Assembly: GCA_036630325.1 (NCBI GenBank)
Contig: CP142735.1
Coordinates: forward strand, 434,001 to 498,000
Source of the DNA: Vairimorpha necatrix
Lineage: Eukaryota
Length of the DNA stretch: 64,000 nucleotides
Reading direction: 5' to 3'
Position numbers and translations under genes: made by a program. This document shows, piece after piece, positions 11,435-57,374 of the stretch. Position 1 is the stretch's first letter. Each line of letters starts with the position of its first letter. The notes under the pieces are model-generated. The model was not told the origin of the DNA and did no database searches. It was given only the letters and a program-made list of their open reading frames with translations.

Positions 11435-11544
11435 TGTAGGAAGTGCTACACATGTCAAATATATTGTGTCATTGTTTTGATATATTTGACATGTCGTTTC
11501 TTTAAATATTTTATAATAATTAAACCCATGTTTTTATCCCAACA
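11435..11544 (+). repeat. 5' LTR of element C
   Basis: Identical to 15023-15132. Confidence 0.97.
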
Positions 11545-14500
11545 ATTTGGCGACAACGTCAGGAACTTTCTCATTTTCAGAAATGAAGAGAAAGATGATC
11601 CACAGCAGTTCTTGGAGGACTTGCAGGATGTGGGGAGGCTGATGGAGTACAGTGAGAGTAAACTTGTACTCCTTTTCAGAATGTCGTTAAAAGATGAAGC
11701 GAGGGATTGGCTGATAGCGCAGCCAATTGGTCTGTCACTTGAAAGACTGAAATTTTTGTTTCAAGAAAGATTTGTGGGTTTTATGGCGATGAAAGTGAGT
11801 ATAGATAAACTTTCCGCCCTTCAATATCATGGTGGATCGCTAATCAACTATCTAGATAAGATGGCGGGATTGGCGCGCAGGGCGAATGTTCCGGAAGGTG
11901 TATTAATTGCTTTTGTACTAAAAGGAATTCCGAACAATATAGCAAATTCGATCTTAATAAATAACAAAGACTCATTATCCTGGGAGTACCTATATAAAGC
12001 CATAAGGAATGTTTTGGAAGTGAATGATACACGTCATAAAGAAATTTCGCGTGGAGATTATGTGGATGTAAAAGCGATTAGCTGCAAGGACCACGATAGA
12101 AAGATTTGGACTTCTAAAAGGAACAAAGAAAAGAGATGTTTTATTTGCGGAAAGAAAGGCCATACAGTAGCACGGTGTAAATTTAATAGTTACCGTAGAG
12201 ATATTAGCGAAGTCAAGAAACCCCAAGAAGAAGGAGAAAATAAGAAGGTGGATGTAAAGGAATTTATTTATAATTACTCTGTTGCAAAAGTCAAGGATGA
12301 TAGGACTACGCTCAAAGAAGCGTCACTAAATAATTCGGAAGTTAAATTTAAAGCGCTCATCGATACTGGTGCTGATATAAATCTAATTAGACCAGAGATT
12401 TTGCCAAATAAAACCGTTGTTAATCGTTCTAAACAACAGCTTAGGGCAGCCAATGGATCGAAAATAAGGATCATTGGAGAAACAGTAGTTAAAATAAAAA
12501 TTGAGGGAATGATATTTGAAGATAAATTTATTATTACTAGGGATATCACAATTCCCTGCATTATAGGACAGGGGTTACTAGACATGTACAAGATAAATTT
12601 AAAATTTGGAAGTAACAAAATGGAAATTGAATCTGGACTTTTGGCAAAGGGAAAAGCCATAGGATATCATAAAATTATCACAAAGAATGATAACCCAATA
12701 CTATCTCAGTTATACAAATTGGGGGGAGCAAAAGAGGATATTGCGTCCCAAATAGTGAAAGAGTATCTAAAACGTGGAATAGTTAGACCAAGTGTAAGCG
12801 CATGGAGAAGCCCGATAATTATAGTCCCTAAAAAGAATGGAGACCACAGATTATGTGTGGATTATCGAAGATTAAATGATGCGACTATTAGAGATGCGTA
12901 TCCAATGCCTAGAGTAGAAGAGTTCATCAACGCTTTAGAGGGTGCAACATATTTTACTAAATTAGACGCTGAATCGGGCTATCACCAAATAGATATGGCG
13001 CCTTGTGATATTGAGAAGACAGCCTTTGCCTGTAGAGAAGGCTTATTTGAATTTACAAAAATGCCATTTGGACTTGTTAATGGTCCAGCTACATTTCAGC
13101 GGGTGATGAATAACATATTGAGGGAATTTTTGTTTAAGTTTGTGGTAGTATATATGGATGATATACTGATTTATAGTAAAACTGAAGAAGATCATAAGAA
13201 AGATGTTCAGATGGTATTAGAGAAGCTCAAGTCGGTAGGACTGAAACTTAATGAGGATAAATGCGAATTTAATAAGACCGAATTAAAAATTTTAGGTCAT
13301 GTGATATCAAAAGAGGGAATAAGTGTGGACGAAGAAAGGGTTAGGAGCATTCAACAGTTACCAATTCCTAAAAGTAAGAAGAAATTACAATCTTTGTTGG
13401 GGCTGTATAATTATTGCTCTAAATTTATTAAAAACAGCCATAAAGTGGTTAGCCCACTATTCGATATAATAAGACTCAAGAATGAGGACGCTGATATTTT
13501 TTGGAAAAATGCAGAGAATGATGCAAAATACTGCAAGGCAATCGAAGAGGTAAAACAGGCTATGAAGAGAACAGCTTTATTGACAATTCCAAATTTAAAG
13601 GATAAATTTATATTGACTACGGATGCATCGAATGAGGGAAGTGGGGCAACATTGGCTCAGATGGTCGGAGGAAAAGAAAAGATTATTTCTTATTACAGCT
13701 CTTTACACTCCAAGACAGAAAAAAACTATTCTACTACTGAGCAAGAATTGCTAGCAGTTATAAAATCGATCCAAAACTTCAGGGAATATTTATTATTGGG
13801 GAAATTTACGCTAAAAACGGATCATCAGGCTTTAAAATATTTGTTTAAGTCTAGGAATGTAAAAGCTAGGTTGGCTAGATGGTCATTACTGCTACAAGAA
13901 TATGATTTCGACATTGAATATATTACAGGACCATCAAACCATACAGATCACCTAAGCAGAGATTTTAAAAAACAGGAGGAAATAGTTTCAGAAATAAGTT
14001 CAATACAAAGGAAAATAGTTAAAAAAGAAAGGACAATAGTGCTATTAAAGTTTTACCATGATTTATTAGGGCATGGATCAAAACAAAATATGAAATATAA
14101 TATTGGTCGAAAATTTACTTGGAAGAATATGAATAGAGACATAGAAAATTATGTAGATAATTGTGAAATTTGTCAAAAAGAAAAACCTCAGAGAAAATTT
14201 AGAGATATTGTACCATTAGTAACAAAGACAATAGGAGAAATCTGGGAAGTAGACATAGTAGGGCCCTTGAGAGAAAGCGAGCAAGGATATAAATTTTTAT
14301 TGACAATGATTGATCACTTTTCGAAAATTGCAGAGGTGGTGCCGATTTATACAAAAGATATGAATACGGTTATTTATCTGATAGATAAACATATAGTCAG
14401 GAAGTATGGTATTCCAAAGGCCATTTTATCTGATAATGGTAAAGAATTCAGAAATAATATCTGTGAGGAATATGCGAGATCCAAAAAATTCATCTGGAAA

Positions 14501-15016
14501 TATGGTTCCCCTTATAAACCTACAACCACGGGGCTTGTTGAGAGGTTTAACAGAACAATAGCCATAAAATTAAGGAAGGTTACAGAATTTGGGAAATTTG
14601 ATTGGGCGAAATGTGTCCCTAAAGTAGTCCGAGCTTATATGCAATCATTTCATAGGGCTATAGGGTGTGCACCAATAGAACTCTTAACAGGAATAGTTCC
14701 AAATAAGATAGATATACAGGAAGGAATGCATCTAACAAAAGATAAGAAAGAGTTTCAGAAGCAGGCGATTAAGAATTTGGAAGTTTACAGACAAGAATAT
14801 GACACGGGAAATAAAGCTAATGCTGTTGATAAGGATGCCATTAAGGTGGGAGATAGAGTTTGGTATCATTTAATTTTACCGTTTAGAGGAAAACTCGAAC
14901 CAAAATGGGAAGAAAAAGGAGTGGTAGTAGATAAAAAATTTCATTCATATAAAGTTTTATTAGATAATGGAAAGACTGTTACAGCAAGTCGAAATCATGT
15001 TAAGCTTTTAAAGTAG
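11528..15016 (+). CDS. gag-pol: Gag-Pol polyprotein of element C (ATG inside the LTR)
   Basis: CFICGKKGHTVARC, LIDTGAD, YMDD, TDAS, HHCC, and D-SDNG-E integrase motifs in Gypsy order. ATG is preceded by CCC. Confidence 0.95.
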   Translation: MFLSQQFGDNVRNFLIFRNEEKDDPQQFLEDLQDVGRLMEYSESKLVLLFRMSLKDEARDWLIAQPIGLSLERLKFLFQERFVGFMAMKVSIDKLSALQYHGGSLINYLDKMAGLARRANVPEGVLIAFVLKGIPNNIANSILINNKDSLSWEYLYKAIRNVLEVNDTRHKEISRGDYVDVKAISCKDHDRKIWTSKRNKEKRCFICGKKGHTVARCKFNSYRRDISEVKKPQEEGENKKVDVKEFIYNYSVAKVKDDRTTLKEASLNNSEVKFKALIDTGADINLIRPEILPNKTVVNRSKQQLRAANGSKIRIIGETVVKIKIEGMIFEDKFIITRDITIPCIIGQGLLDMYKINLKFGSNKMEIESGLLAKGKAIGYHKIITKNDNPILSQLYKLGGAKEDIASQIVKEYLKRGIVRPSVSAWRSPIIIVPKKNGDHRLCVDYRRLNDATIRDAYPMPRVEEFINALEGATYFTKLDAESGYHQIDMAPCDIEKTAFACREGLFEFTKMPFGLVNGPATFQRVMNNILREFLFKFVVVYMDDILIYSKTEEDHKKDVQMVLEKLKSVGLKLNEDKCEFNKTELKILGHVISKEGISVDEERVRSIQQLPIPKSKKKLQSLLGLYNYCSKFIKNSHKVVSPLFDIIRLKNEDADIFWKNAENDAKYCKAIEEVKQAMKRTALLTIPNLKDKFILTTDASNEGSGATLAQMVGGKEKIISYYSSLHSKTEKNYSTTEQELLAVIKSIQNFREYLLLGKFTLKTDHQALKYLFKSRNVKARLARWSLLLQEYDFDIEYITGPSNHTDHLSRDFKKQEEIVSEISSIQRKIVKKERTIVLLKFYHDLLGHGSKQNMKYNIGRKFTWKNMNRDIENYVDNCEICQKEKPQRKFRDIVPLVTKTIGEIWEVDIVGPLRESEQGYKFLLTMIDHFSKIAEVVPIYTKDMNTVIYLIDKHIVRKYGIPKAILSDNGKEFRNNICEEYARSKKFIWKYGSPYKPTTTGLVERFNRTIAIKLRKVTEFGKFDWAKCVPKVVRAYMQSFHRAIGCAPIELLTGIVPNKIDIQEGMHLTKDKKEFQKQAIKNLEVYRQEYDTGNKANAVDKDAIKVGDRVWYHLILPFRGKLEPKWEEKGVVVDKKFHSYKVLLDNGKTVTASRNHVKLLK

Positions 15017-15022
15017 GGGTAG

Positions 15023-15132
15023 TGTAGGAAGTGCTACACATGTCAAATATATTGTGTCATTGTTTTGATATATTTGACATGTCGTTTCTTTAAATATTTT
15101 ATAATAATTAAACCCATGTTTTTATCCCAACA
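15023..15132 (+). repeat. 3' LTR of element C
   Basis: Identical to 11435-11544. Confidence 0.97.
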
Positions 15133-15246
15133 AATATAACTTTAAATGATTCATCTATTTCTAAATTATAATTTTTAATTTTTTAAAATTAATATATTTA
15201 TAAACCTATAAATAACTAAATAAAAAAGGATGATTTTTTTTATAGT

Positions 15247-18200
15247 TGTTGAGATTTAAAAAATTATATTTTATACACTTAATTTTAGAATAAATATGTT
15301 TATGGTGGACACTAAAAAAAACGAGATAAACAAGACAATATAATTTTAAGAATTAAAAGAGCAGGATTCTGAGTAGTTGGGGGGAAATGACCAATGAGGA
15401 GAAGTTAGATTTTTTATAAGCAGACTTAACTCTCATATTTTAGATTGGCATTGTAGGACTTTTGAAGATAAAAGGAAAGCCGCTTTAACGTAAGAAATCT
15501 GGAAAAAGGAAGTGGAACAAGAATTTGAGAATAAAACATTGCTTTTTGACATTTACAATATGAAGCAGAAGGAAGAACAAAAAGTTGTTGATTTTATTAA
15601 AATAGTTTCTAAATGTAATGAAAATGAAATCTCTAATTTATACAGAAGAAAAATTATTAGATCAGGAGTAGATAAGAAGTTAAAAATGATTAAAATTTTT
15701 CTTACGACCCAATATGAGATCGACCAAGAATTTTACGAAATATTTAATGGAATGGTGATCGAAGCATTATTGAATATCAAGTTGGCTGGTTTGAGACTTA
15801 CTAAACAGAACCAACTTAATACATGCTTTAGATGCAGAAGGCCTGGGGACATTTAGCTAAGGATTGCAGGGTAAATCGAAATAATAAACAGGCCAATGAT
15901 GATCAAAGAATCTTTATGAGATTGAAAAGGATAGTCAGAAAGTAGATCAAAGATTTATTACGAATAAAAATAATTTTTATTATGTTGGAACAGAAAAGTG
16001 CCCGTGGTTTTTGATTCGGGCGCGGCCTACAACTTTATCTCTCTTCAAGCTGTCTATGATTTAAAATTGAAACTCAATAAGAATATGAATGTTTTGAAAT
16101 TTTTCACATGTCTTGAAGAAGAATTTTTAGTTGAAAATCATGTTATTGTGGAATACAAATATGGTGATAGAATATTTAAAAGCAGAATGTATGTTTTACC
16201 TAAAGTTAAAAAATTTAAAATATTAATAGGAAAAGATGATATTTGTAAAGTCTTTCGACAACCGAACAATAGAATTTGTGAGATCAATACAAAACCAGGA
16301 GAGAAGGTAATAGAACACGTTTATAGTTTACAAAAGAAATTGGAGGAAGGAATACAAAACTCTATAAATGAGTTATTAAAAAACGGGTATATAAGGAAAT
16401 CTAATTCAACATGGCTAAATAACCTTAGGCCAGTGATCAAACCGGATGGATCCATAAGAGTTACTACGAATTTAATAGCGCTCAACAGATTGGTAGATCT
16501 AGATAATTTTTTTCTCCCCAATATTGAAAGACTTATATACAGTCTTAGAGACAGTAAATATTTTCCAAAAGTGACTTATAAGATGGATTTTTTCAAATTT
16601 AATTAGCCGAAAAAGACAAAAACAAAACTGCTTTCAGATTTAATCATTTATTGTACGAATGGAACGTAATGCCCATGGGGGTTAAAAAATGCTCCAGCCG
16701 TTTTTCAAAGGTTTATGGAAAACGTTTTCGAAGAAGAAATAGGGAAAAATTGCTTTGTCTATGTTGATGACATCCTAATTGTTGGTAGCAATGAAGAAGA
16801 ACGTGATACAAGCTATACAAAGGTTATTAACAAGCTACAAAAATATGAGCTACGAATTAACGAGTCAACGACTATACATAAAAAAGATAACATAGAATTT
16901 TTAGGGCATGTTATTGAATATAACAAGATAAAGCATAAATTTTCGGCTGAACAAGGAATTGAAAATATAGAAAGACCAAATAATAGAAAATCTTGTAAGA
17001 AAATTTCAGGTTTGATTAATATTATCGTAAATTTATTCCACAATGTTCAATAATTTCCGGGCCATTGAATGATTTACTTAAAAAAATATTGTGATTATGT
17101 GGAAAGAGAATGAAGAAAAAGCTTTTAAGAAATTAAAAAATATATTGAGATCACTCGTGGTTCTTTCCCAACCCGATTATAAAAAACCTTACATTTTGAA
17201 ACAGATGCATGCCAACCAGGTATAGAGCTATCTTTTTACAAGATCATGGAAGTGGTCCAGTGCCAATTGCTTTCGCTTCAGGAAAATTGTTACCTGCTGA
17301 AATAAACTATAGAAACAGCGAAAAGGAATGTTTAGCGATATTATGGGGAATGGAACATTTTATATATTTTCTCTATGGAATTGAATTACTGCAAACACTA
17401 ATCACAAGGACCTAGAAGCACTAAATCGGGGAGAGATAAAATCTTTGCGAATCCAACGATGGTTAGACAAACTTACTGAATAAATTATTGTGTTGTATAT
17501 ATAAAAAGAACAAACATTCCACATGTGGATTGCTTATCCAGATCACCAAGACAAGAAATATTAGAGATTAAAAATCTAGAATTAGAAATGACTGAGGAAG
17601 ACAAAAGAAAAATTATCCGTGATAAACACCAAGAACTTATCCATGGAGGTTATAAAGCATTTCAAAATAAACTTAAAAAGAAACACGATTGGAAAAATAC
17701 GAAAACCCTGACTAAAAACGAGCTAAAGAGGTTTATTCGATGTAAAATGTATAACTGAAAGAGAGAAAAGAATTCTATTTGTAAAGTCACCTGCAATTGG
17801 AGAGAAAGTAGCAATAGATATTATTGGTCCAATTAACAACCAAAATATTGTATCTGGGCTTAATTACTTTAGTCGATTCGGATTTGGAAAGGTACTAAGT
17901 TTACGGAGAGTAAGAAAATTGTAAAGTTTTTAGATATGATAAATCAAAAAATTAAGATACATAAACTGATTTTAGATCAATCGGAAGAAAACCTAAGTAA
18001 AGAAATAAGAAGTTGGGCCAAAAATAATAATGTAGAATTACATTATACTTCACCATTTCCCAACAATCCCAATGGAAGAGTGGAAAGATTTAATAGAACA
18101 ATACAAGAAGGAATACACAAACAATAAGGAAAAGAAAATCCTAAAATTAGACTTTCAAAGGTTTTAGATGTATATAACAATGTATATCATAGTAAATTAG

Positions 18201-18566
18201 ATATGTTCCCGAATAAACCTTTACCCCCTACTAATTTTCAAAAGGTCAAAGAAAAAACAATATGAGGAGATTCTAAAATTCAACGAAAGAAATAAAAACC
18301 GAGAAACTAAACCTCATTTTTCAGAGGGAGATAGGGTTATTATAAAAACGGAAACAGGTATCAAAAAGGGAGAACCCAGGTTTAAGGTTAGAGGTTTAAT
18401 TTATAAAGTTTTAAAAACAACACATATCTAGTGAGGACAGGAAACAAAACTATTAAGCGGCATTCTTCTTAGCTGAAATTGATAATGGACGAATGTTTTT
18501 AAGAGAAGGATGTTAAGATTTAAAAAATTAAATTTTATACCCTTAATTTTAGGATAAATATGTTTA
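15247..18566 (+). mobile_element. Degenerate Ty3/Gypsy element D with 56-bp LTRs
   Basis: Direct repeats 15247-15302 and 18511-18566 (4 mismatches), flanks ATAGT/GTAGT, PBS TGGTGGAC, PPT AAGAGAAGGA. Frameshifted fragments: CFRCRRPG, FDSGA, YVDD, ERFNRT. Confidence 0.9.
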
Positions 18567-18605
18567 GTAGTATAAGGGATATACAGAATTAAGAGAAATG
18601 ATAAA

Positions 18606-20820: not shown

Positions 20821-21605
20821 CTAATAGGAATATTCATTATATATATTTAATGAAAAATTTTAATATGTATGGATTAAATATATAATGTATATCATAGTAG
20901 TAAAAATAATAGAATAAATATATTTTATTAGAATTATATATATTTTAATTTTTCGGTGAATTCTCTTAGAACCAAGTATTTTCCTTTTTTTAAAAAAAGT
21001 TACCGTATCAAAATTCTCTCAAATAACAGAGTGAAATGTGAAACGGAAGAAGGTACACATATATAATCTATGTCTAGTCTTAAAACTTTAACATTAAAAA
21101 TCGATTTTAAAATTTATTTGTTTCTTTGATTTCTTGGCGCAACGGTCTGTGCCCGGACTTTCCATAATATTTTACGTACTGAATCCGGGCACAAAACGTA
21201 AAGTGTGGAAATGTTTTTTACGAACCATATCACCAAGAGTCGAAAATTTACAGATTTGTTTAAATTTCATTCGCATTAACATTTCTTGAATTATAAACAT
21301 TTTTGTTTTTTAGATAATTTTTTCAAAAATATTTTACCCTTATGGTATGTATGGAGCCGCTTGACAGTAGGTCGAAAATATTCCAAGACCCACATGAGGC
21401 AATATGTTGGTTAGTGGATGAAAATCTACTAAAAACAACAATGGAATGTACGAAATGTCCTGGTATAATGATATTAACACCGGACGATTCGTACATAGAC
21501 TGCCACCGGTTTAAGTGTAGGGAAAAGACGGGGTGTGGAACATCAATCGGAGTTTTTGATAAAACTGCCCTTTCTAATCCCCTTATACCTATGCATAATT
21601 ATTTG

Positions 21606-21810
21606 TGTTACCGGATATGTCAGATCCGCTTGTTATAAGGCTGAAGTGCCTTCCCTAACATTATTGTTTGTTTGTTACTGTCATCGGTTGTCATGTAAAC
21701 AAACAAACAAAGAAAAGTATTTAAAGAAGACCCCTTAAATACGATGCCAAATAAACAGTTGTTAACTAAAAGCAAGTCTTCTCCCAGCACCAACTCTCCC
21801 GCTGGTAACA
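21606..21810 (+). repeat. Solo LTR of the element G family
   Basis: TGTTACC..GGTAACA, TSD ATTTG, roughly 90% identical by eye to the LTRs at 49026 and 52845. Confidence 0.95.
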
Positions 21811-22262
21811 ATTTGTATATTCTGTATTCGTTCACTGAACCCCCGTCTACACTTAACTTAAACAAAAATTCCCGCGTGTCTGCTTCCAGTGTCTTCAGGG
21901 CTAAAAAAAAAATATACGAAGCACGAAAAGGAAAATTACAAACACCAAAAAAAATTGGTGGATTTGAAGAAGTGACACAGACCGATGAAACTGTTATAGT
22001 AAAGTGTAAAATTGTCAAATCTCCTTCAGAAAGATATGACACAGTCAAGAATTGTACGTGGTTGGTTGGGACGATAGACGAGCGAACATTAGAACTGAGA
22101 ATCGAAATAGTACCTAACCGGACTATACAGACGATGACTCGGTTTTTATAAAAAACATAAAAACGACACGATATGCAAAACTGATGGGCATAAATCTTAT
22201 CCCGCAGCAGTAGAATCTATCAACGAATGATCATCGCGTTGTAATTCATGATGAAGGCTTTA

Positions 22263-23643
22263 CAGGGGTTTGCATTTTTTTAGTCCAACTTTTGCATTTT
22301 TTTAGTCCAACTTTTGCATTTTTTTAGTCCAACTTTTGCATTTTTATAGTCCATTTTTTGCATTTTTATAGTCCAACTTTTGCATTTTTATAGTCCATTT
22401 TTTTTTATTTCAATGGCCTTTTTTTTTGAAAAAAAAACCCCCTAATGCCTAGAAAAGCGAGATCTTCGGTAGCTCCTGATGTCTTAAAGCTCATTGAAAG
22501 ACATATAAAAAACGAAAACTTGACCCTAAAAGATATTGCTACAACATTAGATTTAAGTTATAAAACAATTTGGAGGATCCATAGGAAAATGTGTGAGGGA
22601 GAATCCATTGTTTCTACAGGTACAACAAATCGTTCTAAAGTTTCAGCTCATAGAGTTTTAAAGCCTATCGACATTGTTCTTAAAAACGTCATCGCAAGTA
22701 GTAATGACAAGACTCTAAGTGAAATCAAAGAAGAACTTTATACAATAGCGAATGTTTCAATGTCTTTGTCAACTATTTCGAGAAAGTTGAAATATCTAAA
22801 TATTACAAGAAAAAGACTGTCTCTAATTCCCGAAGAGCGTAATTCGCAGGACAAAATTGATAAAAGAGCAGAATATGCTATGGAAATATCAGGATATTCA
22901 CTAGAAAATTTGATTTTTTGGATGAAATTGGATTTAATGCTCATACCACAAGGCATTATGGGTTTTCATAAAAAAAATAAAAAAGCATTTAAAACAGTCC
23001 CTGCAAATCGAGGCAAAAATTTAAGTTGTCTTTGCGTAATTTCAAAATCGAATATTATAGCATACGAAATGAAAAGGGGCGCATATAATTCTGCTCTATT
23101 CGTCGAATTTATTGAAAGGCATCTTGTAGATTTTTTCTAAACAAATCCTCAAAAGAATTTAATAATGGATAATACTAAATTTCATCATTCAAGAGAAGTT
23201 TTGGATAATCTAAGAGAATTAGGCATATCTTATGTTTTTTTGCCTCCGTATTCCCCACAGCTTAATCCCATTGAAGAGTTTTTTCTATGATAAAATCAAG
23301 GTTTTGTGCTATAAGGAACTCAAATAATGCTGTTATAACGGATTTGTAACAGGTGCTGAACGATGATTTCAGCCTTTCGTGTAATGGATTCTACACTAAT
23401 ATGTTAAGATGGTTAAAAATGGCAAGGCAGAAAAACGAGTTTATCTAATTAAATGAGTTTGTATATATTTTTTGCATAATTCTATTGATTTTTGCTTTTT
23501 TATCAAATCTTGGTTTTTTTTTAAAAAAATGGACTATAAAAATGCAAAAAATGGACTATAAAAATGCAAAAGTTGGACTATAAAAAATGCAAAAGTTGGA
23601 CTAAAAAAATGCAAAAGTTGGACTAAAAAAATGCAAACCCCTG
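22263..23643 (+). mobile_element. Tc1/IS630-like DD34E transposon with tandem-repeat TIRs
   Basis: TA TSD, ends CAGGGGTTTGCA..TGCAAACCCCTG, TIRs built of ~22-bp units. Confidence 0.93.
22445..23447 (+). pseudogene. Tc1-like transposase, with frameshifts and an internal stop
   Basis: HTH-like N-terminus. Frameshifted IFLDE. IMDN..LPPYSPQLNPIEE with 34 residues between D and E. Confidence 0.9.
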
Positions 23644-23959
23644 TAAAAACGAAGCAGGCGAAAACACAAACTTCATAGAGGGAGTCTGGTCACATCTTAA
23701 ATGTGATATAATAGCTAGAAAAGGAATTAAAGAAAGTGGAATCCCGGATTTTTTAGAAGAATTTAAATGGAGAAGAAGGCGTGCCATTTATAAAAACATC
23801 AAAAGTTCAAGAGAGTTCTTTATAGAAATTATCAAAATATTCTTAGAATAAAATCCTTTTTTTATTATTTTTTTTCGTTTCTCTCTAAAGGGGGACCCCT
23901 AGAGAGAAATAAAGTCCGGGCACAGACCGTTGCGGCGATTTCTTATTTTTTTTCCGAGG

Positions 23960-27925: not shown

Positions 27926-27967
27926 AAATTAATATATTTGTAATTTTGTAGTTATAATATATAGAAC

Positions 27968-28324: not shown

Positions 28325-29449
28325 GGACAAGAACATAAAAAAAAAGTAAAATTAGAAATGCAATCATTGATGTGTCAAAAACATCATGTTTATTGCCAAA
28401 CTTAAATCTAAAAACATCAAAAATAGTAAATTTTTTATAATAAAAACATAATAACACTAAGGATCAGCGTAAATTGTCTAAAAAAGTACATTATAGCCGT
28501 ATGATTGAAAATACAGTGTGTCGCGTAAGGGACAACATCACATAGACAGAGGCTTTATATATCATCTGTCACAATGTTCAGTTTGAGGCGTCAAAAGTCA
28601 ATTAACAAAAAATTAAAATTAAAAACTGATCTTATTGTAAAAACATAAACTTCTTGATTTTTTCTTGAAAAGTAGTTAATTATAAATAAAATTTTAAAGA
28701 AACATGTAGATGGGCGTTCGGTATTCAATATAAAGAATGCAGTAAAGATAATGAAAGTAATATTAACAAAAACAATATAAATTACATCTTTAAAAACTAT
28801 TATACAAATGATGGAGTCTTATTTATACATGATTTCTTTATGTACCTCTCTCGTGCTATAAGTTAAATTCAAAAAAATCTAAAAAATTTAATTTAAAAAA
28901 TAGAGAAATTGTTTTTAATCCTAATTAAGAATATTGACAAAACTTATACTGGAACGTTAAAACCTCTTCATAAAACATAAAAATGGACTAACATTTACTA
29001 CATAATTTATAGTTCACAAAAATATAAATCAAGAAATTGAAATCACGAAAAATATAAAAATATGGCCAAAGTAAACATTAGAGACATATCCATATCTATA
29101 GTATATTTCTAAAATATTTTTATTTACAATCGTGTTATGAGTGTTTTTTATTATCGGGATCTTCACTGTATTTCTCGCCATATTGTTTTGTCTATTGTTC
29201 ATTTTTTATTTGTTTTTTGTGTAAGGGCTGCAATCGTATTTATAGTTATGTGTGTTTGTTGTGTAAATAAACAAACAATTTTTCTCGTGGATCTGTGCTG
29301 CACAAAGATACCACAATTAGTTTTAAAATTTTCATATGGGGGGGGGGTTTGCCCTTTTATTTCAATGGAGGAAAGAAAAGCATGAAGAAGGAACAAAAAT
29401 AAAAAGTAGAATAAATATTTTGATAAAGGTATAAATACTGGTGTTATGG

Positions 29450-38061: not shown

Positions 38062-39187
38062 GACGCTCCTGAAATTCAAAATCACGGGCTAAAAAAATTT
38101 GCGAACTTGCTTTATAAATGCTCTACAAAAAAAAAGTCAAAATGACAGGGGGTTGAATTTACGGAATGCGATTTTTTAATTTTATTTTTTTTTACTTCTA
38201 ATGCAAGTACGGAATTTATAAAGCATAATCTTTGTTGGAGAGAAGACTGTCATGAAGTACTTAAAGTCTCTAAACTTCTACAGAAAAACTGTAAAGCGTG
38301 ACTGGGGTTGTTTTATGTACCAGATCAAGTCTAAAAATTACTTAAAAATCTGCCTTTATTGCACATGTTGGGCTAAATAATAATTATTTATAGCCTTTAT
38401 TCTAGAATAAATGTTTAGCACAAATTGCTGCAAAAAATAAAAAGTAACAAAAATGTAATTTTCTCCAAAAGCCCCGAATGGTTAAACATAAACAACTTAG
38501 AGTGTTGTATTGTTTGATATTGAAAATGAACAAACTTGTGGTCTTAGTAACATGTGAGGTCTTTGGGCCACATAGTTTTTTTTAGGGGTTGTCCTTGAAA
38601 AAATAAAAAATGAAATAAATACATTTTTTGCAAAATAGGTGAATAGCGAAAACTATTCAGGCGAAAAAGAGCAATTGTAGAGGTCGTATAATTACTTATC
38701 CTACTATAGAGGAAGATGATATACCCGCAACGACATGGTTGGCGGAGGTATATAAAATGAATGAAATGCTGTTTTCTAAAAATTGTTCCCATCGGGACCG
38801 CAGCTGTAATGCTAGATTTCTTAAGAAGTATGTTCGCGAGTAAACGATAATATAAACTGATGTTTTTGCACCTTACCGTTCTGCTGTTCGCGACTTCGGA
38901 TTTGTTCATTAAGTTGTTGATTAAAGTTTTGGTTTCATTAATGAATATAGACATCATACTAATAAAATTATGAATATTTGGGTTCATTTAAAAACTGAAT
39001 TAATAACAAGAAGAGAACTAAGAAGGAAAATATGGAAGATTTTATATATGAGGTTAAATTTAGAAATTAATATTTAAAAAAAATCGATACGTCTTCAGAA
39101 ACTTTTAAAATTTTTTTTTGTTAAAATATATGGATTGATTTTTTTTAAATATATTTAGCCCCTGTGATTTCAAATTAAAGTAGCGCC
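38062..39187 (+). mobile_element. Degraded Merlin element
   Basis: Imperfect TIRs (..AAATCAC(A)GG(G)GCTAAA) and eroded QIDE/WLVGG/VPNR/TD-like motifs. Confidence 0.6.
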
Positions 39188-39199
39188 CAATTCGCTTTA

Positions 39200-43000: not shown

Positions 43001-43888
43001 CTCATTAATATTAACCTTCTTTGTCGAAATTCTTTTACGTTCATTTTCTAACATTTCAGTGAGTCTCAAACATTCTTTTGTGTAATGAGATCCTTCCCCA
43101 TGTTACATGCAATATTTGCGGTTGTTTAGTCCTCTGCCGTAATTTCCGCTGGAATTTGGCCCTCTGCCGTAATTTTCCCTGGAATTTGGCCCTCTGCCAA
43201 AATTTCCATTGTTTTTTATAGTTCTATCTGGTCTTACCTCGACCCTTAATAGAATTTTATCTGGATATGGTATCCATGCCATTTCTTCAGCTCTCTAAAT
43301 GAAATCTTCTCATGTTTCCACATTAGAAGCTGCCTGGGATAGTATGAGCTTTAATTTCTATAGCGATTTGTTTATTACCATCTGGCATAAAGCTGGAAAG
43401 TTAATTAAGTGTCTTTCAAATATAATTGTTGCTTCATACAACATCTTTGAATATTCCTCCCTGGTCTCGGGCGTCGGGTTTTCCAAAAATCTGCTAAGAG
43501 TAATATCATTATTTTTATTAGATCCAAACCTTTTTTTCATCATAGAAATCAGTTCTTGTAGTCCAATGGTGCCAATTTCCCCTCCTAAAACTTGTGAAAC
43601 CCAAGACAAGGCCGTTCCTTTCATCTTCCATACAAAAGCCTTCACCAGATCTTTTTCAGAATATTCTGCCACTTCACCCAAGATCATCATATCTCTTATC
43701 CAGATATTTATATCCTCTTCTGGTTCCCCTGCAAAATAGTTAACGTTGTTGGTCATTGTCGCCATGTCGTTAAATCGTTTATTAATATTTTCCATCCCCT
43801 CTTTCCAGCATGAATTTATATATTTTAATTGGCCAATCATCTTGCGACAATTGTATCATATTTTGTGGCCCCTGTACTGGCCACGACA
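40013..43888 (-). mobile_element. Defective Ty3/Gypsy element F, related to E
   Basis: 124-bp LTRs 40013-40136 and 43765-43888 (2 mismatches), flanks GACAC/GATAC, PBS TGGCGACAATG. Fragmented gag-pol closely similar to E. Confidence 0.94.
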
Positions 43889-47924: not shown

Positions 47925-48061
47925 AAAGGGTAAAAAAATTTGTAATAAATTTTTAAAATCTATTGAATGTTGAATTAGCATTTTTTATGGCAAGATTATT
48001 GTCAAAATAATTATTAAAGAACTTTATAATTGAAATATATAAGTTTATTGTTACAATCATC

Positions 48062-51000
48062 GGTTAAATTGCGATGTTACCCCCCGCCCCTAAAAAAAAT
48101 AAAAAAGGAATAAAATTATGCTCCTAAAATGAACATACAAAATTTTAGAAAATTAATATATAAAAAAGAGGAATTATTTTTATTTCTTCTTGAAAAAAAT
48201 ATATTAAAGGTACCAATGTGCAATAAGTGCATGACACCCATGACCAAAATTAGAAATAATTTGGACAAATATCGTTGTTACTTACGACGAATTGGGAGAA
48301 AATGCCCAAACAAAGGTAACATTTACAAAGAAAGCATTTTTAAAAGTTCTAGGTTAGACATCGAAGATCTTTTAATTTTGCTGTGTGAATGGGTTAAAGG
48401 TGTAAGCAATGTTTCGGCTACTATCGAATTGGATATAGATAGTAGTACCGTATCTCGCTGGTTTACGCGTTTTAATAACGCTGTATTCTTATCCTATTTC
48501 GACTACCTTCAAAACAAAACCATAGGAGGTTTAATTGCGTAGTTGAAATAGACGAGACATTGCTTGTTAAAAGTAAAAACCATAACGGTAGAATCCTTCA
48601 ATACCAAGTTTGGGCCGTTATTGGAGTTGTACGAGGAGACAGCAATTCTTTTTTTTTCGAAATTGTTGAAAATCGATCAAGAACTACTCTTGTCGATTTA
48701 ATAAAACGGAAAATCGCACCTGGATCTACAATTATTACTGATTGTTGGCGGGGTCATGAGGGGTTTTCGGAACTATGTCCGGATTATAACTATTTACATT
48801 TAACTGTAAATCATAGCCAAAATTTTGTAAATCCAACAACAGGCGCCCACACCTAACAATTGAGGGAATGTAGTCTGTAATTAAAAGGGAATTGCGCAAA
48901 GAAGGAACAAGCCATGGTTCTTTAATGAATCTCATTCGAAAACTTTATATGGCTCGTTTTAAGTTAATTTATAGAGAATCACTACTTGAAAGAATGTTAT
49001 GCTTTTTTGAGATTAATAATATATCTGTTACCAGCGAAGGAGCTGGTGGTGGGAGAAGACTTGCTTTTAGAAGTAACTTGTTTATTTGGCATGCGTATTT
49101 TAGGGGTCTCCCTTAAATACTTTTCTTTGTTTGTTTGTTTACATGACAAGCGATGACAGTAAACAAACAAACAATAATGTTAGGGAAGGCACTTTAGCCT
49201 TATAACAAGCGGATCTGATATATCCGGTAACACTCTCCCCTCCTTAAGACAAGGCTTCACTTCCAGGGAAGAGGTAGTATCTTCTAACATTTTTCCGTCC
49301 TTTTCATACACTACGAAGTCACATCGATTTATAAGATGTTCTATTCCATTCTCTAGGCTTTTTACTTTATAAGCGCCTTTAGTCTTGTTCTTTGTAACGA
49401 TATACGGTCCTATATATTTCTTGTCTAGTTTACTAGACATGTTCCTGTTTTTGATAAAGACAAGAGACCCTTCTTTTACGTCGTCAGCAATCAGTTTCCC
49501 TTTCATCTGTCCTTTATGCTTCTTAATCTTACTATTATTAATATCACATATAACTTCTTTTATCTCATTAGTTACTGTAGTACGCTCATTAAGGTATTCT
49601 GCTGGATCTATAAATAGCATTTCAAAGTCACTCGGAAGTTCTTTGATTATCTTAGGCAATGCGCCTTTCCTCCCATAAAGCATTTCAAAGGGGGACATCT
49701 TTAGTTCACCGATTGGGGACAGCCTATACTGCATAAGGATCAGTGGTAGTATTCTATCCCACTGATTTTGATAATCTGTTACCGCCTTTGCAAGTTTTAC
49801 AATCAGGCTTTGATTGGTCCTCTCTACAAGTCCATTGGATTGAGGGTGATACGGACTGGAATATCTAAAACGAGCGCCGAAGAGTTCCGAAATCTTCCTA
49901 ACAATCTGATTTGTGAACTCTAGCCCTTGGTCACTTCTTATTACGTCTACCGTTCCATGCCGGCTGAAAATATCCTCAATAATAAATTTTGCTATTTCAA
50001 ACGCAGACTTATGTTTTACCGCCTTGGCTTCTACCCATTTAGTCATGTAGTCCGTTGCTACGATGATAAACCTTTTTCCGGAGGAACAATTGGGCAGGGG
50101 CCCTATACAATCGATTCCAATCATTTTAAAGGCTGACTCGAGTTTTGAGGGAAGGTTACAAAATTTTTCCTAGGTTTCTTGTGCTCTATACGCGCCTGAC
50201 AACCGTTTTTTCTCTCCTGATATCTTTGGGGCTAATATCATTAGCCAGGTTCTGCGATTTTAAGAAGAGATTGTGGCCTCCGTACCTCCATGTCCTATGT
50301 AATGATGATTTTCTCTAATCATATCGTCTTTTGTTAATTTCGTGTCGGAACTTACGATATCCATACTCGACGCGTAAACCCTTGACAAGCAGTCTGGAAG
50401 GGTATGAGATTTCCCCTCCTTATATTCTATTTTGAATCTTAAATCGCTTAAGAACATAAGCCATCGTGCAATTCGTCCCTGGGGGTTCTTAACTTTATAC
50501 AGCCACTGTAGAGGTTTTTGGTCGCTTCTTATCAGGACCTCGTCGTGCAGATACATTTTAAAGGTTTCTACGCAGAATATTATAGCTAGGGCTTCTTTCT
50601 CCAGCGTCGTGTAGTTCTTTTCATGCTTATTAAGCTTTCGGCTAGCACAACGAATCGTTACTTCTTCTCCGTCTTGTACCTGTTTCAAAGCACCTCCTAT
50701 ACATTCTTCTGATGCATTTGCTTCAATGATAAACGTCAGCGTTAAGTCTGGGAGTGCCAGCCATGGCGTGAAATAAGTTCTTTCCTTAATGATTCAACGT
50801 CATTCCGCACTTTCTCTGTAATTTGAAGCTTTTCGTTGATTGTTCGATGTATTTCTAGCGCCTTTTTACTAAAGTTGTTTATAAACATCCGATAGAATCC
50901 CAGAAGTCCGATTATAGAGTGTTATTGTTTTGCATTTTAATTTCAAATTCTTTTTCTAAAGGTCCCATACGAGATTTATCTGAAGTGAGCTATCCGGATT

Positions 51001-53193
51001 TTACACTGTATCCCAAAATATTGATATCCTTTGTCATAAAGTTGCTTTTATCAAAGTTTACCTTAAGCCCGTTCTCTGCTAGAATTTCCAATACTTCTTT
51101 TAAGTGCCCATAATGCTCCTCTAAAGTCTTTGAGTATACAAATATGTCGTCTAAATAAACGACTGTGGTCCTATTTAGCTGTTTCCTGAATATCTTGTAC
51201 ATTAGGCTCTGAAAGGTAGCTGGAGCATTAGTGAGACCAAACGGCATTCTCTTAAATTGGAATTTGCCTGACGGTGTCATAAACGATGTGTACTTCTTAG
51301 ATGTCTCTTCCATTGGTATCTGGTAGTATCCCTTCTCTAGGTCTAGTTGAGAGAATATTCTTGCACCGCTTAGATATGTTAAGCATTCTTCAATCAGCGG
51401 TGGCTGACATACCTCTTTCACTGTATTATCATTAAGCTCTCTAAAGTCTATACATAGCCTATATTCACCATTTCTTTTCGGAGCGACAACCGTTGGGGCA
51501 TTCCAAACGCTTGTGCTTTCTTCTATCACGTTCGACTTTAGTAACCTCTCCACCTCCTCTTGGATAAACTTTCTTTTGTCGAGGCTCAGTGGGTAGTTTC
51601 GCTTGCATATTACCTTCCGTTCACTCAGTTCGATTTTATGTTCCACTAACTTTTTCTTTCCTTTTGCGGTTTCCAGCTTCCTTTTGTAGTCATTAATCAA
51701 TTTATGAACATTATAATTCGAAGATAGATCAGGTTTTGATAACTTTGACGGTGTCTTTTCTAAATTAAAAAGTTTATAGCACGTAATCGTTTTATTATCG
51801 ATTTTAACTGACTGACTTCCATAGTCTATTTGAACATTATGTTTCCTCATAAAGTCTATTCCTAATATTATATCACCTTCAAGGTCTTCCACTACAAATA
51901 ACGCTGTTCTGTAGTCATCATCATTAATTTTTATTTTAGTCTCCACTGAGTTTCTGATCTCAGTGCTAGCAAAGGCAGCTCTTAGGTTCACTCCTTGAAC
52001 GGGTATGAGCTTTTCTCTTCTGACAAGATCATGATTAATGAATGAATTTGATGCTCCCGAATCAAACAGTATCTTCACTCTCTCTCCTCGGAATAACCTA
52101 CTACTATATTAAAGTTATTATCCTCGGACGACGGAACTGCATTCATAGACAACACTTTCTTTCCTTCGTGTTTGCAGTCTCTAAATAGGTGCTCTCCACC
52201 ACACTTGTAACATTCTAACTTTCTCTTAGTGTTATTAGTTTTCTTTTTCATATCAGACTCGGAACTCCTCTCCTTTTGCTTTGAGTTTTCGTTTCTTGTT
52301 CTTACTGTCTCGATTAGTTTTATGTTGTTGCTGTGAATCTTTAATAGATCATTCCACGATGTGGTTTCCTCCACTCTTTCTTTTAATGATAGTGGGAAGT
52401 ACCTAGATAATTCTCCAATTATCTCAGTAACGTCAATTTTAGCCTTTTTGTTTAGCTTGATCAATTCGTAAACAAAGTCTTCTAAGTTCTGCGACTTCGG
52501 TCCAGTATACAGTTTCTTATAGAACGTTTTTACAGAGATGCTCCCTTCTCTGAGCTCTTCATTCCCATACTTGTTAAGAAATCTCTGTTTAAAGTCTGTG
52601 TAGGTTTCTACCTCATCTTCAATCATAGCCTCGTACCATAGTAGAGCCGAATCTCTTAAGTACTTCTTCGTGTACTTCATCAGCTTCTGATCCTTCCACT
52701 CTCCTTCAATGTAACTGAATTGGGTTAGCCATATCAAGGCATCCTTCCCAATTTCTCCTTGAAAATACAACATTCTGCTAGTTGTAACTCCCAGTTTTTC
52801 CATCATCGCTTCTAGTGTGTTGGTTTTGATCCCGTTGTCGCCAATGTTACCAGCGAAGGAGCTGGTGGTGGGAGAAGACTTGCTTTTAGAAGTAACTTGT
52901 TTATTTGGCATGTGTTTTTTATGGGTCTCCCTTAAATACTTTTCTTTGTTTGTTTGTTTACATGACAAGCGATGACAGTAAACAAACAAACAAACAATAA
53001 TGTTAGGGAAGGCACTTCAGCCTTATAACAAGCGGATCTGATATATCCGGTAACAATATCATTTTTAAATTACGATTTAGCGCCCGAATTTGATTTTGAA
53101 TTAATTGAATAAATTTTGTTTCCCCTTTTTTTATTTTTTCCCCTTTTTTTTATTTTTTTGGGGGTGGGGGGGGGGTAACATCGCAATTTAACC
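48062..53193 (+). mobile_element. Merlin transposon 3, relative of element 2, nested in the hAT 5' region
   Basis: TIR GGTTAAATTGCGATGTTACCCC, flanks CAATCATC/TAATCATC. Transposase 48129-53112 is broken by stops and by element G. Confidence 0.92.
49026..53055 (-). mobile_element. Defective Ty3/Gypsy element G
   Basis: LTRs 49026-49232 and 52845-53055, TSD ATATC, PBS TGGCGACAAC. Gag CYKCGGEHLFRDC, FDSGA, YLDD and SDQG motifs. Stops and frameshifts in pol. Confidence 0.95.
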
Positions 53194-53943: not shown

Positions 53944-56900
53944 TGTTAATATGTTTATTGTTATTATCCATAAAAATTAGGGGTTACATATAAAATATTT
54001 AAAAATTATCAACATCTCCCTCTACAAAATTGGCTCATCAACTAAAAGCTTTACCCGAGAAGCGTGTCTTTTTATTTTCTTTTTTCCTATCTTGATTATA
54101 AACGCATTATTTTTTAAAGCTTTATAAACACATCCCCGAACATTAAACTTGGGGCTTACCTTTTCCTATATTTCCTTCTTGTCTGATTAGCACAACCTCC
54201 CCTGGTCTAAACAATGTTCTTGCATACCTTTTCCATTCTTTTTATTGTATGTTATGATATTTTCCCTTTGAATCTGTCTTAGTTTGTCTTGTACATTTAA
54301 TAAGGTTGCATCTTGTAGAGTCATTAAGATTTCTTTATGAAATGTGTTGTTGTAAATCTCTATAGCTCTTTTTAACTTCGTTTTTAAAAAACTGTCTTCC
54401 TTATTCTTAAAAGTTAGATCTTGTAGTGTCCTATTAAATCTCTCTACTCTACCATTAGATTGGTGATGGTAGAGAGACGTATAATGTAACTCAATATTAT
54501 GATGCTTACAAAAATTGACGACCTTTGAACTTAAATTTTCTTTCGACTGATCTAATATAAGTGTTTTTATCTTAACCTTTTCGTTACTTCTTCTATAAAT
54601 CTTACTACCTTTTCATCGTTTTTTGAACTAAGAACTTTTGCAAAACCTTTTATAGTAAAATAATCAATAGCCGATATAATATATTGCTTCCCTATTGGGC
54701 CTATTATATCCACCGCAACCTTTTCTCCTCTTTCAAACGCCGTAACAAAAATAAACTTTTTTCTCTTTTTTGAATTATATTAACAACATATCTCACATTC
54801 ATTTACTACTTCCTTAACTAGTTTTTCTACCTTATTAATTTTGAGTCCTCTTTTTGTAATTTCATACTCTAATGAATGTTTCCCTCTATGTAATAGTTCT
54901 AAATGAATAGCTCGCACAATTTCTTTTTCTTCAACCTCATACTTCTCGATTTCTATATCCTTTCTGTTTTCTTTGTCTTCTTCCTGTTGTTTATTATCCT
55001 ACATTATTTCCTCATCTTCAACGAAATCAAAATTTCTGCTTAGACAATCTACGTGAGGTATGTCTTTGCCTTGTCTGTACGTCGCCTTAAAGCAATATCT
55101 AGACATTCTATCTAACCATCTTTGAATTATTGGGGAATTTATTTCACCTTTAATAAGCACTTCTAATGCTTTATGATCTGTAATTACCTCGAATTTTGCA
55201 CCATATAAAAAGTAATTCTAATTTTCCATGCCCTATAACATGGCTAAACACTCTTTCTCACTAATACCGTAATTAATTTCATGATCTTTTTGTTTTCTAG
55301 AAGCAAATGCAATAGGTATCTCCTCTCCATCAATGATCTGATTAAGCACTGCCGATTCCATACTTAGAAGCGTCAGCTGTCAAAATAAAATCTCAAGTAT
55401 AAATAGGTTGAAATAATTCTATGTTCGTTTGAGAATCTCTTTGATCTCCTTAGAAATTTTCTCTTCTTCCTCTGTTTAAATGAACTGTTTCTTGTCTTTT
55501 AATAATTCATACAGTGGACTACATATACCGGAGCAGTCTTTAATAAATTTTATATAATAGTTATTAGTTTCAAAAATTCCTGTAACTGTTGCTTATCCCT
55601 TGGTGATTTTAGATCTTCTATTCCTTGTAATTTATTAACTAACAGGAGTACCTTATTTTCTTCTATATGGTGTTCTAAAAAGTCGATTTCACGCTGTCTA
55701 AAACTAGATTTGTCTTCATTTATTTTAAGCTTGTTTCTATCCAAAGCTTCTTTAATTCTTTTGTATGTCTCATCATGTTCTTTTTCATCTCTGCCAAAAA
55801 TTAAAATATCATCACATAACAGAAACAGCTCTTTCCTATTTCTTCTTTAAGTGCAAAATCCATGAACCTCTGGAATATTACAGGTGAATTTTTGAATCTC
55901 TTTGGTCACACCTTCCATTCATACAGTCTATGTTTGAATCTAAATACTGTCTTGAATCTATCTCTTTCAATCAACTTAATTTGAAAACCCCCATATTCCA
56001 GATCCAACTTTGAGAAAAATTTTCTTCCACGCAAATTACATAAAATCTCGTCTATTCTGGGGATGGAATACCCTCCAAGTTCAACTATTTTATTTAACGC
56101 AACTAAATTTGTAGTCACTTGAATAGAACCATCTGGTTTTATTACCGGCCGAAGATTATTAAGCCATGTAGACTTAGACTCCTGAATGTATCCCTTGCTT
56201 AAAAGCTTCTGAATCGCCATTCCAACGCCTTCTTCCATGTTCTTTGACAATGTATATAAGCTCTACTACTTTTTTGCCCGCTTCCGTCTTGATTTCACAC
56301 ACATATCCTTCATCTTCTGTTTCCATCGTCTCCCTCATCCCATTTTTCCCGATCAATATTTTTTCAATTCTCACTTTGAGTAAAATAAAAAATTTTAAAC
56401 GATAAACTTGGGATTTATACGTCAATTCAATAAATGTATGTTTGTTTACTATGATAGGCTTTTCAAGGTAGGTCTTAAATACCATTTCTTTAGAATTCCA
56501 TTGAAATGGTAGATTAAACTTTTCAGCTACCGCGTTACTGATAAAGTTGTACGTTGATCCAGTGTCAAAAGTAACAGGAACCTCTTGTCCATAAAAATAA
56601 ACTGAATTTTCTTTATTTTTAATAATGTCTGATAATTCGGTGCTTATTTCATTCACTTTCTTACTTCCCTGTTGATTATAATTGGTTCCCATACGACAGT
56701 TTCTTGCAATATGTCCTAATTTTTGACAGTTGTAACATTTAATGGTTTGTTTAGTAGTTTCGATTTTTAAACTTTCAAGTTTCTTCAGTAAATCTTGCAT
56801 TTCTTGTTTTCTCTTATTTTCTTCTAAACATTCTTCTTCTATGATTGTCAACTTATCAATAATTTTTTCATCCAAAGATCCACTAATTTCCAAAAAATTT

Positions 56901-57374
56901 TTTACTCTTCCAAGTTCATCTCTTATCCCACCTGTAATAATCTCAATTATTTCTTCCTCTTTAAGTTTAAACATCCGTGAGGACGACTTTACATTCTCGA
57001 TGTACTGTTTAATGCTTTCGTATTTGTCTTGCTTCATTCGGTAAAGTTTTGCTAAAGACACTTTTTTACGTCCGAATGTTTCTGAAACCTTCAAGTATTT
57101 CACAAAGTTCATTTTTGTACAACCTAAAATAGTCTCGTAGTGCCAATCGAGTAAATCGTAACTGGCTCTACTCACAATCAATTCAATCTTTCTCTCGTCC
57201 TCCATATTCTTAAAGAAGGACATCAACTCAAGTCTTCGTATCTCATTTACTATATTATCTCTATTAATCTCTTTATTCATGGGTTCTCCCTCATTCTCCA
57301 CCATGTTAATATGTTTATTGTTATTCATTCTAAAATTAGGGGTTACATTTAAAATATTTAAAAATATATCAACA
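53944..57374 (-). mobile_element. Degenerate Ty3/Gypsy element H with 71-bp LTRs, related to D
   Basis: LTRs 53944-54014 and 57304-57374, perfect TSD GATAA, PBS TGGTGGAGAAT, PPT GTAGAGGGAGA. Gag-PR ORF 57328-56174 with CYNCQKLGHIARNC and FDTGS. Confidence 0.93.

Follow-up and report, generated by a model that had tools for sequence, protein, structure and literature searches.

Background

GAG of Ty1, the Ty1/copia element of Saccharomyces cerevisiae, initiates inside the 5' long terminal repeat (LTR). The Ty1 primer-binding site (PBS) is described as lying inside the GAG open reading frame (ORF) (PMC4974528), which is also its position in the elements reported here. These are six LTR retrotransposons, designated C to H, and two solo LTRs in 64,000 nucleotides (nt) of DNA from the microsporidian Vairimorpha necatrix (contig CP142735.1, positions 434,001 to 498,000 of the forward strand); the whole of this stretch is called the window, and coordinates are counted from its first letter. 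Ty1 places integrase (IN) before reverse transcriptase (RT), joins two ORFs by a frameshift and has LTRs of about 330 bp in an element of 5.9 kb, whereas the window elements have the order protease (PR), RT, ribonuclease H (RNaseH), IN, a single ORF, and LTRs of 52-211 bp in a compact body of 3.6-3.9 kb. To our knowledge, AATAAA read as codons has not been reported for Ty1. By their sequence, the window elements resemble Ty1 at the 5' end without being members of copia.

Ty3, also of S. cerevisiae, falls into the same superfamily as the window elements by domain order and capsid fold (match to 6r24, template modelling (TM) scores 0.48/0.58). The Ty3 PBS is given as 8 nt long, at nt 121-128 of its RNA and right after the LTR (PMC4974528), so that a short, LTR-adjoining PBS is found in both. 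That PBS lies beside the 5' untranslated region (UTR) and GAG3 starts downstream of it (PMC5371799, PMC4974528), whereas the ORF of the window elements starts upstream of the PBS. Ty3 also differs in having two ORFs and longer LTRs.

Among microsporidian elements, the Nbr elements of Nosema bombycis were reportedly described by Xu et al. in 2006. The microsporidian Ty3/gypsy groups of Parisot et al. (2014, PMC4202319) encode gag-pol as one polyprotein in a single ORF, as here; neither the length of the LTRs nor a start codon within them nor a coding PBS is mentioned in the available text of that paper. In the literature searched, microsporidian elements were not found described with gag starting in the LTR, with a coding PBS or with LTRs of less than 100 nt, and published consensus sequences may show the feature undescribed. 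In retroviral LTRs of the HIV-1 type, the poly(A) signal lies in the repeat region R; its 5' copy is passed over and its 3' copy used, as would have to hold here too for a hexamer downstream of the start site. The hexamer of the window elements differs in standing about 6-30 nt from the predicted cap and 10-19 nt from the LTR end and in that it would be translated, and a GT-rich stretch in U5 does not fit behind it. The order of motifs in the window LTRs (TG..., a TATA-like box, AATAAA, ...(A/G)ACA) is that of the general LTR plan TGT...TATA...AATAAA...ACA outlined in PMC3601003.

Results

Start codons and primer-binding sites at the LTR ends

In every element from C to H, a reading frame opens at an ATG inside the 5' LTR and continues unbroken across the LTR end and across a PBS-like motif that begins with TGG and lies 0-3 nt after each 5' LTR. 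The LTRs come from a self-comparison of the window, which is AT-rich (31.6% GC) and dense in mobile elements; the comparison gave six LTR pairs and two solo LTRs. The features concerned are:

11435-11544, plus strand: 5' LTR of element C, 110 nt, with TG...CA ends
11528-15016, plus strand: polyprotein ORF of element C, gag-PR-RT-RNaseH-IN, 1162 amino acids (aa)
11548-11558, plus strand: PBS-like TGGCGACAACG of element C, 3 nt past the LTR, in frame as (F)GDN
15023-15132, plus strand: 3' LTR of element C, pair of the 110-nt 5' copy
15247-15302, plus strand: 5' LTR of element D, 56 nt; the element is degenerate
18511-18566, plus strand: 3' LTR of element D, pair of the 56-nt 5' copy
36104-36227, minus strand: 5' LTR of element E, 124 nt
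32748-36131, minus strand: polyprotein ORF of element E, gag-PR-RT-RNaseH-IN, 1127 aa
36093-36103, minus strand: PBS-like TGGCGACAACG of element E, adjoining the LTR and read as (M)ATT
32375-32498, minus strand: 3' LTR of element E, with TGAGGGGG (stop codon and polypurine tract) directly before it
43765-43888, minus strand: 5' LTR of element F, 124 nt
40013-40136, minus strand: 3' LTR of element F, pair of the 124-nt 5' copy
52845-53055, minus strand: 5' LTR of element G, about 211 nt
52843-52833, minus strand: PBS-like TGGCGACAACG of element G, after a 1-nt spacer behind the LTR
49026-49232, minus strand: 3' LTR of element G, pair of the 5' copy of about 211 nt
57304-57374, minus strand: 5' LTR of element H, 71 nt
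53944-54014, minus strand: 3' LTR of element H, 92% identical to the 5' copy, with an in-frame ATG here too
21605-21810, plus strand: solo LTR of the G family, with the frame from ATG to LTR end open and no PBS behind it
38366-38417, plus strand: solo LTR of a D-like family, 52 nt, target-site duplication (TSD) GCACA, ending in AATAAATGTTTA

The first in-frame ATG lies 17 nt before the 5' LTR end in C (position 11528), 28 nt in E (36131), 31 nt in F (43795), 67 nt in G (52911), 25 nt in H (57328) and 7 nt in D, and it is directly preceded by CCC in C and by GGGG in E and F. The LTR ends are fixed for C, E, G, H and the solo LTR at 38366-38417 because TSDs of 5 bp flank them (AATAT at 11430-11434 and 15133-15137 for C, ATTCC for E, GATAT for G and TTATC for H); in D and F the TSD matches at four of five bases. 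AATAAA is in frame 0 and reads Asn-Lys in E (MENPNK, with the hexamer at 36119-36114 on the minus strand), F (MENINK), G (MPNK, 3 nt after the ATG) and H (MNNNK). An earlier note on this DNA had claimed, for C, E, F, G and H, a long ORF that starts in the last 17-67 nt of the 5' LTR and reads on through the LTR end and PBS, with the hexamer read as Asn-Lys in the last four; the TSD-backed boundaries (four of five bases in F), the frames traced through the TGG motif and the frame of all four hexamers bear this out. The Asn-Lys reading is partly forced, because one of the three frames of AATAAA gives TAA, and the hexamers of C (ATTAAA) and D (AATAAA) precede the ATG and stand outside the ORF. 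What stays constant is how far the hexamer is from the LTR end (10-19 nt), and not where it falls in the ORF.

The PBS-like motif of C, E, F and G is TGGCGACAA, and its exact matches in the window are these four only; the motif is TGGTGGAGAAT / TGGTGGAGAATG in H and TGGTGGACAC after the 5' LTR of D. The motif may resemble the 3' end of a fungal tRNA-Ser. In E, F, H and D, a second in-frame ATG, here called the junction ATG, is made up of the last A of the LTR (36104 in E) and the TG with which the PBS begins; it may serve there as the main start or as an alternative. The spacing between the LTR ATG and this junction ATG is a multiple of three nucleotides in all six elements that have both (E, F, H, D and two elements from public contigs, L001 and L002), and E and F differ by a single 3-nt indel between the LTR ATG and the LTR end. 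None of eight elements (C-H, L001, L002) has an out-of-frame ATG between the CCC/GGG motif and the LTR end; such ATGs occur further upstream, at -93/-54 in C, -108/-83 in E, -95/-47 in F, -119 in G and -46 in H. The expected N-termini are MENPNK.../MFLSQQFGDNVR from the LTR start and, in E, MATTTNN... from the junction start. The only ATG upstream of the conserved motif of C is that at 11528, the next in-frame Met (residue 39) being inside the conserved block. In G, a downstream Met (residues 36/37) would also retain the conserved capsid motif, and the LTR start would be dispensable there. A gag AUG in the LTR and a PBS within gag, the two features of the 5' overprinting of Ty1, are thus both present at the sequence level. 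That the gag frame is open across nearly the whole LTR is probably due to chance.

LTR lengths range from 52 to 211 nt, the shortest being those of H (71 nt), D (56 nt) and the D-like solo LTR (52 nt). The D-type LTRs (52 and 56 nt) have the form TGTTG...GTTTA and end in TA instead of CA. We know of no LTR shorter than 52-56 nt in an autonomous family, and a figure for shorter ones was not found in the literature searched. In contigs of run X1, LTRs of the type at 38366-38417 have a polypurine tract joined to one end and TGGTGGAGAAT... joined to the other, and full-length relatives of the 52-nt type were seen in these contigs. A remnant of the same layout, without an element body, lies at 29170-29290 on the minus strand (TGTTTG..., a TATAAATA box, AAATAAAAAATG and an in-frame ATG fused to TGGCGAGAA).

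Promoter signature of the LTR ATGs

In Encephalitozoon cuniculi, 5' UTRs are reported as shorter than 7 nt, with CCC/GGG beside the transcription start (PMC2803860, PMC5499648), and start sites mapped by rapid amplification of cDNA ends have CCC/GGG close by and a TATA-like box upstream (PMC5499648). In V. necatrix, CCC/GGG is given as lying within 30 bp upstream of the start in 77% of genes and 54% of predicted transposons (PMC10759460). Each of the 2246 ATGs of the window was checked for CCC/GGG within 20 nt and for a TATA-like octamer whose first base lies 26-28 nt upstream. This signature was present at 22 ATGs, against 5.2 +/- 2.0 in shuffles (maximum 10), an enrichment of about 4-fold. 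Ten of the 22 are LTR ATGs, namely those of both LTRs of C, E, F and G, the 5' LTR of H and the G-family solo LTR, and the five ATGs listed for C, E, F, G and H all carry it. An 800-aa host-like ORF also carries it at its start codon, at 27889; a second host-like ORF, at 8752, has, as read by eye, TATAAATA at -26 and no C/G triplet. The TATA-like box is 27 nt upstream of the ATG in C and E, and L001 and L002 have the same spacing, with GGG/CCC touching the ATG. The putative LTR starts therefore carry the motif part of the microsporidian core promoter as it is outlined in PMC2803860 and PMC5499648.

Upstream of the TATA-like box, the U3 regions of E (36150-36215, minus strand) and F (43820-43880, minus strand) contain CCAAT and inverted ATTGG motifs (GACCAATCA, GATTGGCTAC; GATTGGCCAAT).

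Conservation of the LTR-encoded leader

Relatives of E were collected by a whole-protein search with E and a profile-free search with its gag residues 1-200 against 1.84 billion representatives, from which the best 150 of 215 matches at E <= 0.001 were used. The window's own translations and four false motif matches were left out, and two duplicate N-termini were collapsed. All counts for E-type relatives given here and below are among the matches listed. The set holds 115 unique N-termini in which the PBS-encoded junction motif is followed by the capsid motif F.G..(E/D)D...W(L/I); at the junction itself, 107 have Met, six have Leu and two have Ile. A leader upstream of the junction is present in 94 of the 115 (88 Met-initiated and six 5'-partial), with a median length of 13 aa (interquartile range 11-16, range 7-38). 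Under a null model with the base composition of the LTR end and a hexamer placed 10-19 nt from that end, an in-frame Met leader is expected 12% of the time and has a median length of 6 aa, against the 88 of 109 complete N-termini (81%) that have one.

The dipeptide NK occurs in 39 of the 88 Met-initiated leaders and in none of 88 length-matched control segments; I-N or I-K, from the other open frame of AATAAA, occurs in 15 further leaders versus five controls. In 33 of the 39, NK stands 3-6 residues before the junction, which therefore places the hexamer end 10-19 nt from the LTR end, as in the DNA of E, F, H, L001 and L002. Among the 94 leaders, 76 have D and 14 have N immediately before the junction, which fits an LTR end of (G/A)ACA and the general LTR end consensus given in PMC3601003. 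The capsid motif starts 8-10 residues past the PBS-encoded residues, and most relatives have no Met between the two. M10 and A11 are nearly invariant in two alignments, and the public V. necatrix annotation (P0003) begins at MENPNK. Judged from these N-termini, the frame through LTR, PBS and capsid is retained in about 100 diverged relatives from several microsporidian genera.

C represents a separate arrangement, with a 3-nt spacer, the PBS in another frame and no junction ATG. A shared-word search with C gag residues 1-260 gave no match; the whole-protein search did find relatives, including the Nosema bombycis polyprotein Q15F60_NOSBO (41% identity to C). The PBS is read as L-A-T/S in seven of the eight C-type relatives with full N-termini, and all eight have a Met leader, of 9-21 residues. 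The motif F-R-N..DDP follows the PBS-encoded residues, with a Met between them in none of the six relatives checked. The C lineage is thus left with an LTR-internal start as its sole AUG option.

On public contigs, L001, L002 and L004 were the only N-terminal matches among 80 genome_contigs loci, and a 5' LTR was present only in L001 and L002; none of 80 metagenome_contigs loci matched before residue 291. L164, the only one of four viral_contigs loci to reach the N-terminus, was dropped, being GC-rich and having an ORF that continues upstream. A further element, L016 (342-4184), has a 1280-aa ORF that begins 19 nt after a 268-nt LTR, in the canonical order LTR-PBS-ATG, and ends ~10 nt inside the 3' LTR repeat; an LTR-internal start is therefore not universal among such compact elements. 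L016 comes from the same metagenome-assembled genome (MAG) bin as L001. L001, L002, L004 and L016 are complete LTR retrotransposons of microsporidian type (3.2-4.4 kb) on contigs that had been assigned to bacterial MAG bins (Clostridium sp., Leadbetterella sp.), and related proteins are also filed under Aeromonas sp. and Bacteroidales. The contigs of these four are eukaryotic contamination of bacterial bins.

Family membership and Gag structure

The Pfam order PR-RT-RNaseH-IN in C and E, the direct terminal repeats with TG...CA ends (TA in place of CA in the D type) and the short TSDs are those of Ty3/gypsy, and IN lies C-terminal to RT-RNaseH rather than before RT as in Ty1/copia. A polypurine tract adjoining the 3' LTR can be read directly in C (AAAGTAGGGGTAG), E (TGAGGGGG), G (GGGGAGAG) and H (GTAGAGGGAGA). 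The stop codon of C, TAG, is inside the polypurine tract and 6 nt short of the 3' LTR, and the ORF makes up 94% of this element because it spans the distance from the LTR ATG to that tract. Long ORFs are retained only in C and E, while D, F, G and H are degraded downstream. By sequence, the elements are single-ORF Ty3/gypsy retrotransposons within the microsporidian groups.

The Retrotrans_gag match of Pfam in C is under the cut-off (22.5 vs 24.1 bits). AlphaFold, given 46 relatives in the alignment, models E residues 1-200 as a two-lobed helical capsid with a mean predicted local distance difference test (pLDDT) score of 89.6; in structure, the model comes closest to the capsids of PNMA2 (E 3.3e-4), dArc1 and Ty3. 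Residues 10-15, which are PBS-encoded, are modelled as a confident short helix; the PBS would therefore be translated into the modelled part of Gag, with the LTR-encoded part as an N-terminal tail.

A named Vairimorpha necatrix protein matches the E polyprotein at 100% identity across 86% of the length of the latter, and the other relatives of E are from Nosema granulosis, Pseudoloma, Pancytospora and Enteropsectra. The ORF of E is broken ~80 codons before the polypurine tract (32740-32770, minus strand), and the integrase C-terminus resumes in another frame; one run X1 contig carries an indel relative to the window at this break, and other copies of E may be intact there. An integrase fragment (Integrase_H2C2 and rve) lies at 36280-37467 on the minus strand, directly upstream of the 5' LTR of E. 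The frame of this fragment runs into the LTR, which is why the ORF listing starts E at 36284. E is probably a nested insertion into an older element at 36280-37467.

Other elements and genes in the window

A DNA transposon is present in two diverged inverted copies (71% identical), at 30588-31325 (minus strand) and 48062-48932; the former has an ISXO2/IS1595-like DDE domain and is thus of the Merlin type. Inverted repeats of ~120 nt at 22259-22439 and 23512-23647 flank an ORF at 22430-23137 (plus strand) with weak helix-turn-helix matches, and there is an internal repeat spaced 22 and 44 nt; ORF and repeats are probably a Tc1/mariner-like transposon. The two host-like ORFs, at 8752-10866 (plus strand, 704 aa) and 25487-27889 (minus strand, 800 aa), are paralogues without a Pfam family that share short stretches at 84-86% DNA identity and have a TATAAATA box 26-28 nt before both ATGs.

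Discussion

The arrangement described here probably reflects a host-type promoter in the LTR and a gag-pol ORF that opens in the 5' LTR and runs through the hexamer, the LTR end and the PBS. We infer the transcription start, the poly(A) site, the initiation codon used and the identity of the tRNA primer from the DNA. Transcription would most likely start a few nucleotides upstream of the LTR ATG, as in microsporidian mRNAs. The ORF would then begin at the LTR ATG, take in the poly(A) hexamer, the LTR end (G/A)ACA that integrase recognises and the TGG... PBS, and continue into the capsid and on to the polypurine tract, with the junction ATG as a possible alternative start in the E, F, H and D types. 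R, plus any U5, would extend from the start site to the LTR end, about 10 nt in the D type to about 70 nt in G, and this would therefore be the size of minus-strand strong-stop DNA; that R and U5 are tiny, as the earlier note expected, is upheld by LTRs of only 52-211 nt. The hexamer of the 3' LTR would direct cleavage 10-19 nt downstream, at about the LTR end, and we propose that closeness to the cap (within about 30 nt) leaves the 5' copy unused.

More tentatively, the LTR may be essentially without U5, with cleavage at or a few nucleotides past the terminal CA, so that the LTR would consist of U3 and an R (about 10-50 nt) that is wholly coding; we regard this as possible rather than probable. 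If it were true, the terminal CA would at once be the end used by integrase, be the poly(A) site and supply the first base of the second start codon. In the D type, whose LTR has 52-56 nt and an ATG 7-8 nt before its end, R would not exceed about 10 nt, giving this type the shortest repeat and strong-stop DNA of any autonomous LTR element. Such an R would be at or below the homology usually thought to be needed for first-strand transfer and would hint at help other than R pairing.

Several observations weigh against a start at the LTR ATG or limit the evidence for it. The 115 N-termini represent clusters and not independent lineages, gene callers favour long ORFs, and 21 of the 115 begin at the junction Met. 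The leader sequence is unconserved among relatives, and the model gives no secondary structure to the nine LTR-encoded residues of E (mean pLDDT 66 for residues 1-10). Copies of the G family differ at 12 of 67 sites from the ATG to the LTR end versus 6-8 of 138 upstream, with 0 gap columns in the former segment versus 2-6 upstream. These differences therefore point to purifying selection on the length of the leader and not on its sequence; the copy alignment that the earlier note had proposed shows frame and length kept, but not the codon-level selection it looked for. In other eukaryotes, an AUG within a few nucleotides of the cap is often skipped, which favours the junction ATG. A partner tRNA for the PBS was not found by an acceptor-stem pattern on G001 or by ARAGORN on the window, where no tRNA gene was detected. 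The only run compared (X1 contigs, kind unknown) covers 30 of 30 bins, intergenic ones included, and is thus DNA-like.

Part of this evidence would suit a working start at the junction ATG in the E, F, H and D types, with the LTR ATG outside the mRNA or passed by leaky scanning, the leader tolerated and the PBS still coding. Met at the junction in 107 of 115 N-termini, the proteins that begin there, the near-invariance of M10 and A11, and a floppy, unconserved leader next to a confident PBS-encoded helix are all as such a start would have them, and the 27-nt spacing from TATA-like box to ATG would place a metazoan-type start site at or near the LTR ATG itself. However, an ATG arises automatically where a CA-ending LTR abuts a TGG PBS, and its conservation is therefore no proof of use. 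The upstream Met is kept in 88 of 109 complete N-termini against the 12% expected, the promoter signature is centred on the LTR ATG as at the start of a host-like gene, and the junction ATG is missing in C, G, seven of eight C-type relatives and eight of 115 E-type relatives. We consider a junction start unlikely on balance. It is very improbable that transcription starts far upstream and translation at a downstream ATG, the LTR ATG, in-frame AATAAA and open PBS being a chance extension of the ORF: some extension is expected in AT-rich DNA, G has an in-frame Met (residues 36/37) upstream of the capsid motif, and F, G and H are degraded copies, but a start above the TATA-like box would bring out-of-frame ATGs into the leader of C, E, F, G and H, the in-frame leader is found in 81% against 12% by chance, most relatives have no Met between the PBS-encoded residues and the capsid motif, and the promoter signature is about 4-fold over shuffles and falls on LTR ATGs.

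With a start in the LTR as the favoured reading, the earlier proposals hold to differing degrees. The overprinting of signals is supported by the promoter signature, ATG, hexamer and PBS anatomy, with the reservations that the hexamer is outside the ORF in C and D and that Asn-Lys is partly forced. Initiation of gag at the LTR ATG finds support in promoter context and a conserved leader, tempered by the possible junction ATG in E, F, H and D and the downstream Met of G. That the arrangement is common to several divergent families agrees with the frame retained in relatives from several genera. A PBS inside gag is already known from Ty1; what is newly seen is the junction ATG, the hexamer upstream of the ATG in C and D, and LTRs of 52-71 nt.

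Conclusions

LTR finders with a minimum LTR length of ~100 nt will miss these elements, and gene callers will label them host genes. The PBS-encoded N-terminus (D/N)-M-A-T/S is a clade tag found in >100 protein clusters. The elements offer a natural test of how small R, U5, strong-stop DNA and a whole LTR can be, since 30-70 nt would have to serve RNA polymerase II, the ribosome, the cleavage and polyadenylation machinery, integrase and a tRNA-primed reverse transcriptase. The compaction of microsporidian genes, with near-absent 5' UTRs and signals placed against the ATG, would thus have reshaped their retrotransposons too.

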